A stretch of DNA of 58,102 nt from Chiloscyllium plagiosum (taxonomy: Eukaryota), in contig NC_057718.1 in assembly GCF_004010195.1 (NCBI RefSeq), forward strand, positions 57,007,147 through 57,065,248, given 5' to 3'. Under the pieces are notes generated by a model that was given only the letters and a program-made list of their open reading frames with translations, did no database searches and was not told the DNA's origin. Both the position numbers and the translations under genes were made by a program. The number at the start of each line of letters is the position of its first letter. Positions within the stretch are counted from its first letter, which is position 1. Below are positions 1-9,263 of the stretch, piece by piece.

Positions 1-1202
1 TTCTTGCGGTTGCAGGGGAAGGTGCCGGGAGTGGAGGTTGGGTTGGTTGGGGGTGTGGACCTGACGAGGGAGTCACGGAGGGAGTGGTCTTTTCGGAACG
101 CTGATAGGGGAGGGGAGGTAAATATATCACTGGTGGTGGGGTCCGTTTGGAGGTGGCGGAAATGGCGGCGGATGATACACTGTACATGGAGGACCAGTGG
201 GGTTCTGTCCTGGTGGCGGTTGGAGGGGCTGGGCTCAAGGGTGGAGGAGCAGGAAGTGGAAGAGATGCGGTGGAGGGCATCGTCGACTACGTCTGGCGGG
301 AAATTTCGGTCCTTGAAGGAGGCCATCTGGGTTGTATGGTTTTGGAACTGGTCCTCCTCGGAGCAGATGCGGCGGAGACGAAGGAATTGGGAATATGGGA
401 TGGCGTTTTTACAAGGGGCAGGGTGGGAGGAGGTGTAGTCTAGGTAGCTGTGGGAATCGGTCGGTTTATAGTAAGTGTCCGTTTCGATTTGGTCATCCGA
501 GATAGAAATGGAAAGGTCTAGGAAGGGGAGGGAGGAATCTGAGACGGTCCAGGTGAATTTGAGGTCATGGTGGAAGGTGTTGGTAAAGTGGATGAACTGT
601 TCAACCTCCTCGTGGGAGCACGAGGCAGCGCCGATACAGTCATCGATGTAGCGGAGGAAAAGGTGGGGGGTGGGGTCAGTGTAGCTGCAGAAGATGGACT
701 GTTCCACATATCCTACGAAGAGGCAGGCATAGCTGGGGCCCATGGCTACTCCTTTGGTTTGAAGGAAGTGGGAGGATTGGAAAGAGAAGTTGTTCAGGGT
801 GAGGACCAGTTCAGTCAGTCGGAGGGTGTCAGTAGAAGGGTACTGGTTGGTACGGCGGGAAAGGAAGAAGCGGAGGGCTTTACGTCCTTTGTGATGGGGG
901 ATGGAGGTGTACAGGGATTGGTGTCGATGGTGAAGATAAGGCATTGGAGACCAGGGAAGCAAAAATCATGGAGGAGGTGGAGGGCGTGGGTGGTGTCCAG
1001 AACGTAGGTGGGGAGTTCTTGGACTAAGGGGGACAGGACCGTGTCGAGATATGCAGAGATGAGTTCGGTGGGGCAGGAGCAGGCTGAGACAATGGGTCGA
1101 CCGGGGCAGTCAGGTTTGTGGATTTTGGGCAGGAGGCAGAAGCGGGCGGTGCGGGGTTGTGGGACTATGAGGTTGGAGGCGGTGGATGGGAGATCCCCTG
1201 AG
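1..1202 (-). mobile_element. Penelope-like element, RT region (decayed)
   Basis: Minus translation [31 protein letters not shown] plus the RYIDD region and IPYSQFLRLRRIC; runs into a gap. Confidence 0.9.
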
Positions 1203-2368: not shown

Positions 2369-3217
2369 TGTGTTTTTTTTTTAAAAAGGCAGAGCGTTCA
2401 CAAAAAGACAAGTGCATTTTAATTTTGATGTTTAGTTAAGATGTTAGAGAATATTAGAACTTGAGACTGAGCTATTTAAGTTCTGTCAATTATTATTAAG
2501 GCTTCATTGGCTCCCTTCATATTGGAAATTCAAAGAATGCTGATCTCTACCAAAGTTACTGGTCTGTAACCACTGTAATTCTGATTGTTTTATTTGGGAA
2601 GTTTCATTCGGAGAACATATTCTAATATATTCTGCATTTGTTTCTCACTAATATTTGAGATTTTAAATCTGAACTGAAACTGCCTCTTCAGTGGCTAAAG
2701 CACAGGAAAGGACTGGAAACATTTTGTTGTTTTCTTGCTGTTCCAGATTTTGGAAATACTTTTCCTGACAGCTTTCACATTAGCCAAGTATTAATTTGTT
2801 CAAGGAAAATAATTTTTGAATAACCCAAATAGGGTCCCCTGAGGGTTTGATTTAAGGACCACTGATTGTTGTTTATAATTGACTGAATGGTTTAGGCAGT
2901 ACAATTTAGAAGTTTATGCATTTTATAAAATTTGATAATGTCATAAATAGTGAACAGAGTAACAGACGTCAAGATGACGGAGAATGTTGAAATAGGCAAA
3001 CACAATTTAGTGTAGTTAAATGTATGGCTGTTTTCACACTGATAACCACCATGGCAAGGAAGAAATGAGAGAGGAAATGCAGAGATACTTTCAGCAGTTA
3101 TCATCTCTAGAGTTTCACCATTCACAGGTAAAGCATGCCTTCAGACCACCGTCCACTCCTCCACAGCCTGATCCAACAGATTCAATTAGCTTCTACACTT
3201 TTTGTGCTCATGACTGA

Positions 3218-3504
3218 GGAGCTAACAACAGTGAAGAGGAGGTCTGCATGCTTTTGTCAGTGGCTTTCCTATGGATAACAAACCATGAGCTTTACCTTCT
3301 CTTGTGATCATTTAAGAGATATGAAGGTTCACTGATCAAGCTGACAACAAAACAGCCAGTTGGCTTTGTTACATTTGACAGCAGAGCAGGAGCAGAAGCA
3401 GCAAAGAATACTGCATTCATCTACCCTGCTGCTGCACTCAGATGCGCTGGTATCCTCCATCTGAAGCAACTCCAGAAAGATGAAAGCCTCATCAGTTTTG
3501 TTAA
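3218..3504 (+). pseudogene. RBPMS2: Processed RBPMS2 (Hermes) retrocopy with internal deletion, frameshifts and stops
   Basis: Reads [86 protein letters not shown]. Intronless across positions where the parent gene is spliced. [11 protein letters not shown] and RWYP favour RBPMS2 over RBPMS. Confidence 0.9.
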
Positions 3505-3509
3505 GTATT

Positions 3510-4965
3510 TAACTGCCCTTATTCAAGAATCCAGATTTCTCCATGGATCGGTGAGAAGGGCAGACTGGATTTTGTTTTCAGGTTGGACTTTACTGAAAGA
3601 GATTTTGAATAACTGGTTCATTACCACTCACCTTGGAGTGGGTGGATTGGTCACTATGGACTGTGGATTTAAGAACTTTACTGGTGAACCTTTTTTTCCC
3701 CCCCATGTGGGAGGATCCTGGGGATCCTATCTACTGCATGGACTAGTAATTTAATAATCATTGCATGTGTGTCAATAACTTGTTTAAATACTGGCAGTAA
3801 GATTTTTCTGAAGAAGGTGGTAGTGCCATCTAGGTGGTTATCATGGAATGATAAAAAAGAGGAAATGTGATAATAATGAGTTAATTTACTCTGCTGACCT
3901 GCAGGAAATTGGATGTCCCGAGGCTAGGGTGGTATACCTCTGACTTGCAGGTACCTTGTAAGAAATTTACATTCCCATCCCTTGCCATTCAGAGCCATTT
4001 ATATGGCCATCTCCTATTATTCCGAGATAATGATGCAAATGTAAATTATCATATTCAAAATCAAAAAAAATATTGCAGTTAGAATTCTGACTATTCCCTG
4101 TAGTTAAGAAATTATTCACAACAGATTTGACCATTTAAGGAATGATTTACATTACACTTTTTCCGGAGACGATTAGATCACTACATTATCTTGAGTGGCA
4201 TGTGACTATGAGGGAATGGATGTGGGTAGTCTTGTGGGCATTACTGACTGAGGAAAGTTTGTACTGTACAGTGCTTACTAAAATTTTGATTGTTCACAGA
4301 AGTTGGTGTATTGCAGCTGCATCAAGTACGTAAGAATGTCAGGACAAAAAGAATCTAACACTTGGACATTGAAAGTATCAATTACGATTTGCACCAAGAG
4401 TTGAATGGGAGGTTCACTCCAATAGTGCTAGTTGATGAAGTAGAGTTTTACATATCTTGATGATTTGATTAATACCCAGATTAGCAGATGAAACTATTTG
4501 CCTGGCATCAATATTAAGTTAAATGAGCAGAAATAAACTGAGTATGGTCAAACATATATCCAATTGTGCATCTTGTGGAATAATCACTTAGGTGTCTTTG
4601 AAAAGCCCTAATTCTTCTCTGAAAAAGTAGAAGAAATGAGCTTGCTCAGGGATCTGGTAAACTTGTTTGGGCCATCTGCTCAGCATGACCTTCTTGAGAT
4701 GTTACAGCTGGATATCAGACAGCTTGCTGAATCTGCTCTATGCTTCTGTTGGAGAACCTGCCTGAGATGACTGAGGACTTCAGAATCATGCATAATAATC
4801 TTGTCCTGTAATAGATTTGCTCTGTGATCTAAGACACATCCACTTTCAATATGGTTAGATTGAAGGATTCATAAGTTTTGAAGAATACTTTTGCCAGAAG
4901 ATAAAGCATTTTTGAGACTGAAAGACATTTTGATGATCGTCCTGCCATACATATGGTGTATCTTT
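3510..4965 (+). pseudogene. Candidate endogenous viral element: decayed Mononegavirales (paramyxovirus-like) L protein, methyltransferase and C-terminal region
   Basis: Ordered motifs across frameshifts: [10 protein letters not shown] (3712-3741), IFL-x-EGGSAI (3802-3830), TTDLT (4118-4132), LS*VACDYEGMD (4189-4221), VLTKILI (4271-4291), SNSAS (4418-4432). Followed by a long, sparsely stopped helical-looking frame (about 4296-4740). Confidence 0.5.
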
Positions 4966-5250
4966 CATAGAATCATACAGTAGAGAAAAGGCCCTTCAGC
5001 CCATCAAGTCTACACCAACAAAAATCTACATTTGTCCCACTTTCGAGCATGTGGCTCATATATTGAATGTTACGACATTTCAAGTGCTCCCGTTTTAATT
5101 TCTCTGCCAGGCAAGGCATTTCAGATTCCTACCATCTTCTGGGTCAAAAACAAATTTCCTCCAATCTCTTCTAAACCACCTACCTTTCTTCTTAAAATTA
5201 TGCACGCTTGTTATTGACCCTTCAACTAAAGGGAGCAGTTACTTTCTATG
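4966..5250 (-). mobile_element. CR1 LINE 3' end (old)
   Basis: Begins with catagaatc tail and ggcccttcagcccatc, the reverse complement of the shark CR1 3' end. Confidence 0.7.
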
Positions 5251-5439
5251 TACAAGTAAAAACTGCAGATGGTGACAACCTGAAAACTAAAACTGAAACT
5301 GCTGGGAGAAACTCAGCAGTTCTGATAGCATCTGTGGAGAGAAAGCAGAGTTAGCATTGAGTCACTGGGTCACTGAGTGTTTCCAGCAATTTCTTCTTTC
5401 ATCAACCAAACCAACCTCTGAACACAGGTAAAGAGTTTC

Positions 5440-5900
5440 CATTTCTGGTCTGCCTGCTATAGGAAGGATGTTGTGAAACTTAAAAAGGGTTCAAAAAAGA
5501 TTTACAAGAATGTTGCCAGGAGGGTTTGAGCTACAGACAGAGGCTGAATAGGCCAAAACTATTTTCACCTTTCTCGGAGGCTGAGGTGTGATCTCAGAGG
5601 TTTATTTAATCATGAGACAGGATTAGCGGAGTCCAAAACTGGACGGCATAGGTTTAAGGTGAAGGGGGTATGATTTAAAAAGGGACCGAAGGGGCAACTT
5701 TTTCATGTAGAGAATGATGTGTGGATGGAATGAGCTGCCAGAGAAAGGCTGGTACAATTACAACATTTAAAAGGCATCTGGATGGCTACATGAATAAGAA
5801 GGGTTTAGAGGGATATGAGCCAAGTGCTGACAAATCGGACTAGATTCGTTTACGAGTTGGGCCGAAGAGTCTGTTTCCATTCTATACATCTCTATGGCTA
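5440..5900 (+). mobile_element. CR1/HER1 LINE 3' end
   Basis: FWS.CYRKDVVKLKRVQKRFTRMLPG C-terminus; tail gttgggccgaag..ctgtttcc. Confidence 0.85.
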
Positions 5901-5904
5901 TTTG

Positions 5905-6265
5905 GCCCTTCATCTAGCCACTAAAACACAACAACCAGCTATCCTTAGTATCTATTCACAGACGACAAGGACCACAAATTCGACTGGGACAACACAACAA
6001 TAATAGGACAAGCCAACAGAGGACAGCCAGAGAATTGCTAGAGGTTTAGCACTCATCCACAGACTCCATCAATAAACACAGTGATCCAATATGCTGATCA
6101 CTACAACAAACCAGAAGCAACAGGAACTAAAGCGAATAGATTCCAAATGACAGTACAGCAGCACTTCACAGGAGATAACACAGCACGGAGGATGTCCCCT
6201 AGAAAGGGGACAAAACTTCTGCAAACCAAATTCACAGCAAGGCGAACATACCCACAACAACTGCA
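5905..6265 (+). mobile_element. Penelope-like 3' end of a second subfamily, with degenerate hammerhead
   Basis: ARELLE..HSSTDSINKH-type GIY-YIG end; CGGAGGA-T-GTCCCC-TAGAAA-GGGGAC-AAAA near 6186-6215 (mutated core). Confidence 0.6.
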
Positions 6266-8157
6266 GGTTCAAGATTCTTGCTCAGTGTGTGGCAGAGAGA
6301 GGGGACTATAGGGTAGAAGGGCTAACTGACCACACTATCATGGTACAGAAGCCATTTAAGTGGGCGGGAAAAAGGATAAATATAGTCATAATCAGGAATA
6401 TAGTTAGGGGATAGACATTGTTCTCTGTAGCTAATGTTGGTGCCTGTTTAAGCCCAACAGCCGTCAGCTGCATCTGCTGGTGTATACAGAGAGAAGAGTC
6501 AATGCTTATAACTTCACAAGTTACTTTAATAATGTATGTTTTATTTCAAACTAGAGCTTATATATTCCCACAAACTGAACTAAAACCTATATATGCACCC
6601 ACTCAAGATCTCCGACACTCCCAGACTAGTCACAGAATATACATGGTAATAAGTGATCTGGATAACTGTTTTGCTGCTGCTGCTGAGAGCTGATGTTGGC
6701 CAGACGCTGCTCTCTCTCACCCATAATGTCATCACATTCTGGATATGGGGTTTGCTTCTGTGATACTAGGTCTCCGGAGTTTGTTCCTGCATGCCCAGAG
6801 AGTCTTCCTTTCTCTCGCTCTCTCCAGAGTAGGGGCCTCAGTATATTACTTCATTGCCCCTCATCCAAATAAGCCTTCTGCATACCTCATCTTTCTTACT
6901 TCTTTCTGCAGAATATAGTTGGTACCAAACAGTACCTGGACTCCAGTTATTCTCTGTTCACAAGTAGTTTTCCCCTGCATGTCAGCAGTTTTTATTTACA
7001 CGGAGCATTCCTAGCCCGTCAGCAACTGGTACCTCTGTCTCTCTGCAGCCTTCTGGCTATCTCATTTTCAGGATAATGTTGCTGACTGGTAGAATAAGGG
7101 AAGAGGTTCTGCTGAGGGAATATAAGCAATAAGATGCTAAGTTTTAAAAAGAAAAAACGACAAAGGTAATAATCTCCAGGTTACTACTAGATTGATGAGT
7201 TAATGGGCACAAGATCAACAAGGTTAAAGTATTAAATTCCTATCTCAAAGATTGAGGCAGGGGAAATGGGTTCAAATTCATCAGACATTGATACCTGTAC
7301 TAGGGAAAGAGGTAGGTTTTCCATTTGGCCAGCCTCCACTTGAATCATGCTAGGACTAGAAACCAGGGCAAGGGAGTTTAGCTGCATGGAAAACTAAGTT
7401 AAAAGGAGAAGGTCAGAGTGCAAGTCAGAAAGGAGGCAAATTTATTACCAGAAAAGAAAAGTGAGAACAGTAGGGACAGTTGATAATAGGAGACACTTAA
7501 AAGGCTTTGTATCTGAATATGCATAGAATTTGGAATAAAATTCATGGAGTTAACAGTGCAAATGGAAACAAACAGGTATGATTTGCTGATCTCAGATGGG
7601 ATTACAGGTCTGGGAATAGAATATCCAAGGATACCCAATGTTTTAGAAGGGTAGATGAGAAGGAAAAGGAGGTGGTGTATTTGTTAGTAAATGATGATAT
7701 CAGTGCTGCAGTGAAGTTATTATTTTGGAAATGGAGATCATGATGTAGAATTAATCTGGATAAAAATAAATAGCAATGAAAGAGGTGCCTGATGGGGGTG
7801 ACCTATAGGTCCTCAAACAGTAGTTTCCACAGGAAACTATATAAACTAGGAAATACCAGGGGATTGTAAGAAAGGGACAAAATTAATCAAGGGTGATTTT
7901 TAATATACGCACAGACTGAATTAAATCAAACTGGCAAGGGTAGTCTGGAAGCAAAGTTCATTGAACATATTAAAGACTGTTTCTTAGAACAATATTTTGA
8001 AACCAGCCAGGGAGCAGGCAATCTTGGATTGAGTATTTATAAACAAGATGGGATTAACGATTGCATAGTAAAGGATCTTCTCGGAAATAGTCATCATAGC
8101 ATGCTAGAATTTCAAATTCAGTTTAAAAAAAAGACAAGAAAAACATTTTGATGTTAA

Positions 8158-8490
8158 ATAGAGTCATAGAGATGTACAGCACAGAAACTGACCCCGCTGT
8201 CCAACTCATCCATGCCGACCAGATATCCCAACCCAATCTAGTCCCACCTGCCAGCACCTGGCCCATATCCCTCCAAACCCTTCCTATTCCATATACCCAT
8301 CCAAATGCCTTTTAAATGTTGCAATTGTACCAGCCTCCACCACTTCCTCTGGCAGCTCATTCCATACACGTACCACCCTCTGCATGAAAAAGTTGCCTCT
8401 TAGTCTCTTATTTTTCCCCTTTCACCCTAAATCTATGCCCTCTAGATCTGAACACCCCGACTCCAGGGAAAAGACTTTGTCTATTTATCC
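8158..8490 (-). mobile_element. Young CR1/HER1 3' fragment
   Basis: Near-identical to 51440-51770. Confidence 0.9.
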
Positions 8491-8511
8491 TTAAATAAAA
8501 GCAATTATGCT

Positions 8512-8845
8512 GGCATGGTAGCACTGTGGTTATTACTGCTGCCTCACACCACCAGAGACCAGGTTCATTTTGAGCCTTGGACAATTGTGAGAAATGTTCA
8601 CGTTCTTCCTGTGTCTGCATGGGTTTCGTCCAAGTCCTGTTTCCTCCTACAGTCCAAAGACATGAAGGTGAGCTGGATTGGCCATGCTAAGTTAGCCCGT
8701 AGTGTCCGGGGATTTGCAGACTACATAGATTACCCACGATGGTTTATGGGACATGGTCAGGAGTTAGTTCTGGGTGGATGCTCTTTTCACAGTCAGTTCA
8801 GATTTCATGGGCAGAATGTCTTCCCACTGTAGGGGATTCTATGAC
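8512..8845 (+). mobile_element. Older HE1/V-SINE
   Basis: tRNA-like head, V-domain-like core, CR1-type tail ending attctatga. Confidence 0.75.
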
Positions 8846-9263
8846 TGAGAAAAAACATGGTCTAGTAAAATGGTAGAAAGGCTAAAAAGGAGGTTTGATT
8901 AAGTGGCAGACATTCAAGGAGAAATTCAAATTCCTCCAACTAAAAAGATTTCCTAGAGGACAGAAGATTGTGGGGAAAGCATCCACAGTTGAGCAAGGAG
9001 GATTAAGATAACTAAAGCATACCATATTGCAAAGGTCAGTGGCAGGCGTGGTGCACGCGTGTGTATGGTGTGTGTGACATTTTTGTTTACAAACCTAGAA
9101 AAGCAAAAAAGGTAAATGATCCAGTTGGCAAGTTCACCCCAAATCCCATCTGATCTAATTTTCATCTACGATGCAGAACTGTATCAAAGACTTTACAAAG
9201 GTTCAAGTAAACAAAGTTAAAAATCATAACACCAGGTTATAGTCCAACAGGTTTAATTGGAAG

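Follow-up and report, generated by a model that had tools for sequence, protein, structure and literature searches.

Evidence for a Non-Autonomous Class I Endogenous Retrovirus Family Carrying a Spliced RBPMS2 mRNA in Chiloscyllium plagiosum

Introduction

A decayed block in the genome of Chiloscyllium plagiosum is very probably the 3′ part of one non-autonomous copy of a class I endogenous retrovirus (ERV), in which a spliced RBPMS2 mRNA replaces most of env. The block lies in a window of 58,102 nucleotides (contig NC_057718.1, forward strand), the whole stretch of DNA analyzed and the one to which positions refer; L, C and G000 numbers are our labels for loci, contigs and the genome. A single likely capture, through two template switches by a retroviral reverse transcriptase (RT), and a likely spread in trans with helper enzymes are parts of the best explanation. 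Our confidence is equally high in the mechanism taken as a whole: a class I retrovirus would have packaged RBPMS2 mRNA, RT would have switched templates, helper enzymes would have copied the product, and the copies would have been trimmed and passed on to a second ERV family. The parts of the block are not independent insertions.

Anatomy of the Window Copy

A first-pass annotation, made from the sequence alone, had treated 3020-4965 as one chimeric retro-insertion of RBPMS2 mRNA and virus-like L sequence. The segment is not a single unit: the element ends sharply at 4360 and reaches left past 2373 (Table 1). Similarity stops at 4360 in 20 copies, and none aligns to 4380-4965.

Table 1. Features of the window copy and its right flank.
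Feature	Positions	Strand	Evidence
3′ half of the ~1.3-kb AT-rich insert, typical of form III	2373..3024	+	Common to copies; absent from helper ERVs and forms I/II
Integrase N-terminal remnant (zinc-finger H-x3-H)	3025..3069	+	80-86% to 5 helper ERV loci, where it lies directly before the integrase core
Integrase post-core remnant	3065..3150	+	73-85% to 10 helper loci; joined to the N-terminal piece after core loss
Remainder of a ~70-nt bridge found in all forms	3151..3176	+	Weakly similar (E 0.05) to gag-region sequence in one helper
RBPMS2 exon 1 (5′UTR end and first codons)	3177..3243	+	Matches G000:C40:25026153-25026207
RBPMS2 exons 2, 3 and most of 4, spliced (incomplete RRM)	3244..3409	+	87-93% to three separate GT-AG-bordered C40 exons
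RBPMS2 exon 6 end and exon 7	3408..3511	+	93% and 91% to C40 exons
RBPMS2 exon 8, 3′UTR	3512..3715	+	175/208 identical (84%) to C40:25131898-25132105, E 9e-56; starts at AG acceptor
ERV env-region 3′ end and polypurine tract (3853-3865)	3708..3865	+	Helper loci L164, L165, L167, L170 and L171 align from 3708
3′ LTR, type A (TG...CA)	3866..4360	+	Present twice as direct repeats in other copies; also on helper ERVs
Flank outside the element: decayed pol remnant of an LTR retrotransposon (RT-RNase H region)	4361..4965	-	No cover by element copies

The RBPMS2 retrocopy that had been annotated as ending at 3504 stands: it is intronless, matches the PDB RBPMS2 RRM over 3308-3412 (E 7e-12), and has its stop codon at 3502-3504 with no poly(A). 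The ORF-like segment at 3020-3217 is likewise confirmed as a 65-aa frame, inside which 3025-3150 is the integrase remnant. The core missing between the two integrase pieces is kept in L123, L124, L126 and L129 (Pfam rve E 6.7e-9 for L124). Within exon 1, the segment 3186-3222 is locally inverted in the window copy; against the host interval, the inverted match is 92% and the direct match 96%. Ahead of 3408-3511, mRNA positions 293-543 have been lost in frame, and the identical deletion is found in form III copies. The 3′ LTR is ~100 nt shorter than in other copies.

A virus-like frame had been proposed just downstream of the stop. The 19-residue peptide in question is indeed encoded from 3512 on the same strand, but its likeness to L is not upheld, the segment being host exon 8: 3512-3715 aligns to the RBPMS2 3′UTR from the splice site at 84%, an outcome that the first-pass annotation had itself listed as refuting its reading, and the 7 nt between the stop and the residues TAL are the end of exon 7. 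Nor is 3505-4965 virus-like throughout, since it includes this 3′UTR and, at 4361-4965, the flank. A negative-strand virus L gene was therefore rejected; none of the six frames of 3505-4965 matches a Pfam family at E<=10, and each part has another source (3′UTR, env end, LTR, flank). A genome search with profile PF00946, run without a positive control, gave no match and is given no weight. Endogenous elements of negative-strand viruses resemble the present stretch in being reverse-transcribed sequence, and in nothing more; they differ in that the stretch has no L homology.

The leader of the window copy and the 5′ half of its AT-rich insert lie 6.7-8.0 kb upstream of the window, split off by ~9 kb of later inserts. 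In the 40 kb upstream, DNA that has two gaps, the copy's own 5′ LTR and target site duplication (TSD) were not found. Window 3-1202 on the minus strand and 1972-2372, with a 321-aa open frame and a GIY-YIG-like end, are part of the later inserts. They read as what we take to be a Penelope-type retrotransposon, rather than the CR1 remnant first assigned to the left flank; this Penelope-like flank has no Pfam match. High-copy repeats at window 4966-5100 and 5440-5900 are presumably the 3′ ends of CR1-type LINEs. The right flank (4361-4965) has 27 weak relatives, one of which, L044, contains Pfam RT_RNaseH_2 (E 8e-14) and matches the stretch at E 1e-8; we assume that this pol remnant is Ty3/Gypsy-like. 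Continuity of the pol remnant across the insertion was considered and not used, as the sole upstream match is in the wrong orientation.

Contigs of three organisms bridge the junction of LTR end and flank, with 0/733, 6/345 and 28/688 differences. Thus, the window insertion is real and older than the split of these organisms.

The Captured mRNA and Its Junctions

The host RBPMS2 gene has eight exons with GT-AG borders at C40:25.026-25.132 Mb, in agreement with the annotated Chiloscyllium plagiosum RBPMS2, isoform ends aside. The host exons match end to end in element copies, and in the least deleted copies, form I, all seven introns are absent. The captured mRNA extends from 77 nt of 5′UTR to 208 nt of exon 8. 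In the window, the spliced cargo consists of exons 1-4, the end of exon 6, exon 7 and 204 nt of exon 8, and it sits between pol remnants and the end of env.

On the 5′ side, the junction of RT-coding sequence and RBPMS2 5′UTR spans 6-7 bases common to both. At the 3′ junction, the 3′UTR meets env with 8 bases in common; this microhomology of host 3′UTR and ERV occupies window 3708-3715. Both junctions are identical across the deletion forms. In 200,000 random joins, the chance of such microhomology was 0.0005 for >=7 nt and 0.00014 for >=8 nt. The RT jump between viral RNA and RBPMS2 mRNA proposed by the first-pass annotation is retained as a jump, with a class I ERV as the virus and, likely, a retroviral rather than a LINE RT as the enzyme.

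These junctions suggest the following course. RBPMS2 mRNA would have been co-packaged by a class I retrovirus, and the RT would have switched onto this mRNA and then back to viral RNA. The mRNA may have been at hand through germ-cell activity, by analogy with zebrafish, where an excerpt of PMC6049948 describes Rbpms2 as needed for oocyte fate (protein data). Somatic capture followed by germline entry may be an alternative as to the place of capture. The earlier notion that viral RNA was in the oocyte is not sustained, as nothing in the data shows RNA-virus RNA there. Forms I and II are already rearranged, with an RT piece after the integrase; because of this, two switches do not suffice, and the initial product is unseen.

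Classic transduction would place a provirus at or upstream of RBPMS2, yielding a read-through, spliced RNA, so that only the 3′ junction is made by RT recombination. It is the textbook route of v-onc capture (PMC4299795, in the portion consulted), and the replacement of env by cargo is seen in many such viruses. However, the 5′ junction runs from RT-coding sequence into the middle of exon 1 at 6-7 nt of microhomology, not at a splice site, and no helper pol or LTR match is present in the 280 kb around RBPMS2 (with five small gaps), a common repeat in the probe aside. We reckon this route quite improbable and favor template switching at both junctions.

Copy Number and LTR Anatomy of the Family

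Four genome searches, pooled, give a family of at least 215 distinct loci on 47 contigs. Overlap among searches puts the total at 272 to 512 loci, estimates that lean low in that all queries favor similar copies. Of 638 candidates, the 39 other loci that were scored all cover window 2850-3510 nearly whole, at 81-86%; 3500-4250 is likewise matched across genome loci, and the 35-aa RRM piece is found in 150/150 scored matches (492 candidates). The window copy is one of hundreds of later copies, and the capture event is not to be placed at the present locus, as had been supposed.

The copies have the anatomy of LTR elements. Direct repeats ~2.9-3.5 kb apart in other copies have TG...CA ends, with a primer-binding site (PBS) after the 5′ repeat; the polypurine tract (PPT) precedes the 3′ LTR in the window and in other copies. 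Among copies with >=250 aligned bases, LTR pairs were found in 35/79 of form III and 9/13 of forms I/II. All four LTR ends could be resolved for 12 copies; among these, the 4-bp TSD is exact in six, has one mismatch in two, and is poor in four, and a TSD of 5 or 6 bp was found in none. The Leu-type PBS of copies with LTR types A, D and E complements the 3′ end of tRNA-Leu(AAG/TAG) genes, two of four tRNA loci being called Leu. Two other PBS types are presumably Ser and Arg; a pattern search for the Ser PBS gave 0 hits.

Because of the LTRs, PBS, PPT, 4-bp TSDs and lack of poly(A), a retroviral RT is likelier than a LINE RT. A LINE-made chimeric retrocopy was rejected on the missing poly(A), the end at an LTR, and the hundreds of loci. 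The first-pass reading, in which a LINE RT joined a negative-strand L mRNA to RBPMS2 mRNA here, or in which independent insertions came to lie side by side, has next to no chance of being correct: all that speaks for it is that the pieces follow one another on one strand and that poly(A) is missing, while the frame it calls viral is host 3′UTR, Pfam matches none of the six frames, and hundreds of LTR-enclosed loci repeat the identical order of parts.

If a single chimeric locus had been multiplied by segmental duplication at the DNA level, this would account for a few near pairs, such as two hits 23 kb apart on C43, and for the common long branch of L065 and L070 (see below). Similarity ends at the LTR ends, though, with unrelated flanks, and each copy has its own TSD on one or another of 47 contigs; such a spread is accordingly rated as extremely improbable, and retrotransposition is preferred.

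In one RNA run, of which 2% of reads were examined, element depth was 0-2, from mixed copies. Single copies show further features. L195/L262 (C11:3282216-3285382) has a leader with a long tandem array of a 26-nt unit, and shorter arrays of this unit occur in other leaders of the B/C type (L055, L064, L081). L095/L097 (C32:16430236-16430486) carries a local inverted duplication of the RRM-coding piece. In L123, an exon at oriented positions 3881-4309 is 1.5 kb away from a form II copy, which probably sits in an intron; we presume that the exon encodes a p120-catenin family N-terminal coiled coil. Three RefSeq "RBPMS2-like" proteins, XP_043545055.1, XP_043546817.1 and XP_043563611.1, start with the integrase remnant and carry the form III deletion; these models are element copies annotated as genes. 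RBPMS2 reads and probes can cross-map to element copies.

The Helper Retrovirus

Helpers were sought with the integrase core as query, and cargo status was judged within 10 kb per locus. The close integrase relatives examined (L161-L171, L173), 12 in all, are longer proviruses, and none has RBPMS2 within its 10 kb. Helper loci hold protease, RT with YVDD (L163, L168), RNase H, integrase and a match to env HR1-HR2; Pfam gives the order protease, RT_RNaseH, RNase_H, rve and env HR1-HR2 over L168, L171, L124 and L173. The PDB hits of L168 pol are all "RT/RNase H p80" or Gag-Pol chains (best E 4e-38), which we take to be those of MLV/XMRV, i.e., gammaretroviral. By its sequence, the helper reads as a class I (gamma/epsilon-like) ERV. 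Some cargo copies keep RNase H and the integrase core upstream of the cargo. Of 150 integrase hits, 18 reach >=61% and count as close helper loci, with cargo forms among them. Remoter class I ERV families, ~48-54% alike in integrase, are represented by L172, L174 and L176-L180, several of which have LTR pairs and env remnants.

Deletion Forms and the LTR Switch

The 92 natural copies compared, a sample biased by the queries used, fall into three forms. Form I (3/92) has the whole captured mRNA, 1-877; form II (10/92) lacks 538-719; and form III (79/92, the window copy included) keeps 52-292 and 544-877. Exon 5 is kept at 38 loci genome-wide. The AT-rich 1.3-kb insert occurs in 62 of the 79 form III copies and is absent from helpers and from forms I and II. 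Three genome searches for its source led, at all loci inspected (20 of the 39 other hits in the first search; 30 loci in each of the other two, the query copy included), to copies of the element, whole or truncated. Pfam was blank on 12 frames of the insert, Rfam gave sub-threshold matches only, and the 280 kb around RBPMS2 held no match.

Forms I and II have LTR type E. Among form III copies, the types are A (25), D (7), E (1), B (36) and C (7), with 3 uncalled; the probe for D holds a common repeat at 340-470, so that some of the 7 D calls are possibly soft. Types A/E and D are also found on helper loci, and B/C on L175. The L175 provirus is ~64% alike to the helper in integrase DNA and has in common with it ~30 nt just before the LTR, a stretch also seen in L172. 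Form III has acquired LTRs of a second ERV family, and crossover in the ~30-nt pre-LTR stretch would be the simplest route. L175 also holds, at 4304-5796, a form III copy reversed inside an ERV at ~6000-9135 of this second, B/C-type family.

The forms probably arose in the order of the full form and then the trimmed forms, and helper enzymes would have amplified them in the germline. The order rests on the nested deletions, because the tree resolves neither forms nor LTR types. The tree, built from the 77/92 copies with an LTR call and enough aligned columns, is star-like, with the host on the shortest branch and four small supported clades. L065 and L070, both on C4, have a long, fully supported cargo branch in common and yet differ in LTR type (A and C), a case of late recombination or conversion. 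LTR pairs have a median K2P distance of 0.133 (range 0.067-0.210) over the 35 form III pairs and of 0.143 over the 8 form II pairs, values that are low as they come from local alignments. No per-year rate was found in the portion of PMC10587355 consulted, and no absolute age is given.

Single residues bear on the time of capture. At residue 157, T is found in form I copies (3/3), the host and the whale shark, and A in five other sharks, two skates and a chimaera. Host RBPMS2 has C62 and V64; the residues at these two sites are S and A in the whale shark, the white shark, five further sharks and a skate, and S and T in the chimaera. Scored element copies keep S62 in 76 cases and A64 in 57. A64V is a CpG transition, in host exon 4 (G000:C40:25088016-25088078). 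These residues suggest that the host changes S62C and A64V postdate capture, and that capture would have taken place within the carpet sharks, before the host S62 change. Dating by residue 157 in form III was set aside, the codon lying on the deletion junction; a "host changed" call at 157 is an artefact.

The Cargo as a Passenger

With changes scored against the commonest codon per column and CpG sites left out, pN/pS is 1.18 over 79 form III copies (432 synonymous, 1381 non-synonymous and 57 stop changes) and 1.01 over 13 form I/II copies (10 stop changes). Shared variants give the same ratio, which is ~1 in every frequency class. Neither value shows purifying selection on the captured ORF. 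Because pN/pS is ~1, the RBPMS2 cargo is probably carried along as a passenger. The coding part has fewer frameshifting indels per kb (5.0) than the 3′UTR (13.3). Such a deficit could hint at constraint, but homopolymer runs in the UTR confound the comparison. Across the joins of form III, a single reading frame runs from the integrase remnant through to the native stop; by pattern it is still open in 2/79 copies, and it is seen in a third copy. Neither the open frame nor the indel deficit overrides the substitution test.

Non-autonomous elements commonly outnumber their helpers. This bears on the proposal that the cargo was kept for helping the element, either early as protein or as RNA (germline localisation, stability, small-RNA shelter). 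RBPMS2 pieces are kept in all forms, the form III frame is open in a few copies, cargo loci (at least 215) exceed close helper loci (18/150 integrase hits at >=61%), and zebrafish oocyte fate depends on Rbpms2 (PMC6049948, excerpt). However, no frequency class departs from a pN/pS ratio of about 1, form III has lost the end of the RRM and form II the C-terminus and stop, and an excess over helpers is what non-autonomous forms commonly display. A helpful cargo is thus a minor possibility, and the passenger reading is preferred. Somewhat less probable still is the specific idea that RBPMS2 sequence acts as RNA for the element, in that small-RNA silencing would be impossible without hitting the oocyte-fate gene. 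If this were true, RNA-level shelter would have allowed hundreds of copies and the hop between two ERV families, and the host changes S62C and A64V, in a near-invariant RRM stretch, would be traces of conflict.

Relation to Known Systems

Captures of this type are already known; what is unusual is the copy number, the surviving intermediates and the helper switch. The comparisons below draw on excerpts of the papers cited. In crocodilians, CrocERV29 carries KIT-ligand (nine copies) and CrocERV31 carries nectin3 (six), the captured ORFs being under purifying selection (PMC4299795). Like the shark family, these are germline ERV lineages with a whole host mRNA and deletion derivatives, and nectin3 replaces env. 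They differ in copy number (6-9), in purifying selection and, for the nectin3 case, in being of the ERV4 class; the shark family is class I, has at least 215 loci, decays neutrally, and was transferred to the LTRs of a second ERV family.

LTR-mediated retroposition, for which HERV-K/FAM8A1 and maize Bs1 are cited as cases, yields microsimilarity at junctions with a median of 6 bp (Tan et al. 2016, PMC5131818). It resembles our case in the partial mRNA within a discontinuous LTR element, the microsimilarity at both junctions, the lack of poly(A), the further rounds as a non-autonomous element and the multi-source chimeras. The shark element has several of the marks by which LTR-mediated retrocopies are recognized: an intronless mRNA segment replacing an internal region, two-point microsimilarity and no poly(A). 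In contrast, the cases of PMC5131818 have one or a few insertion sites, against hundreds and a helper switch here.

Acutely transforming retroviruses, such as those with v-src and v-sis (PMC13297096), also have a defective, helper-dependent genome in which a spliced host gene replaces viral genes. They are somatic and selected for the cargo protein, whereas the shark family is germline-fixed and ancient, with a cargo not selected as protein among copies. Other acutely transforming cases include v-mos. No report of an RBPMS2-carrying ERV was found in the literature searched, whose scope ended short of repeat libraries such as Repbase, and RBPMS is absent from the main text of a vertebrate retrocopy survey (10.64898/2026.06.26.734816, seen in part).

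Implications

Reassignment of the window block removes a false RNA-virus element. In its place stands a fossil record of gene capture by a retrovirus that is unusually full for a vertebrate germline: the donor gene and the helper virus are preserved in one genome, together with both junctions, as are the three trimmed forms and the move to a second virus family. At no fewer than 215 loci, its scale is well above the 6-9 copies of the crocodilian cases. Through this family, it can be tested whether an element gains shelter from silencing by carrying sequence captured from a germline gene, or whether such sequence exposes the host gene to silencing.
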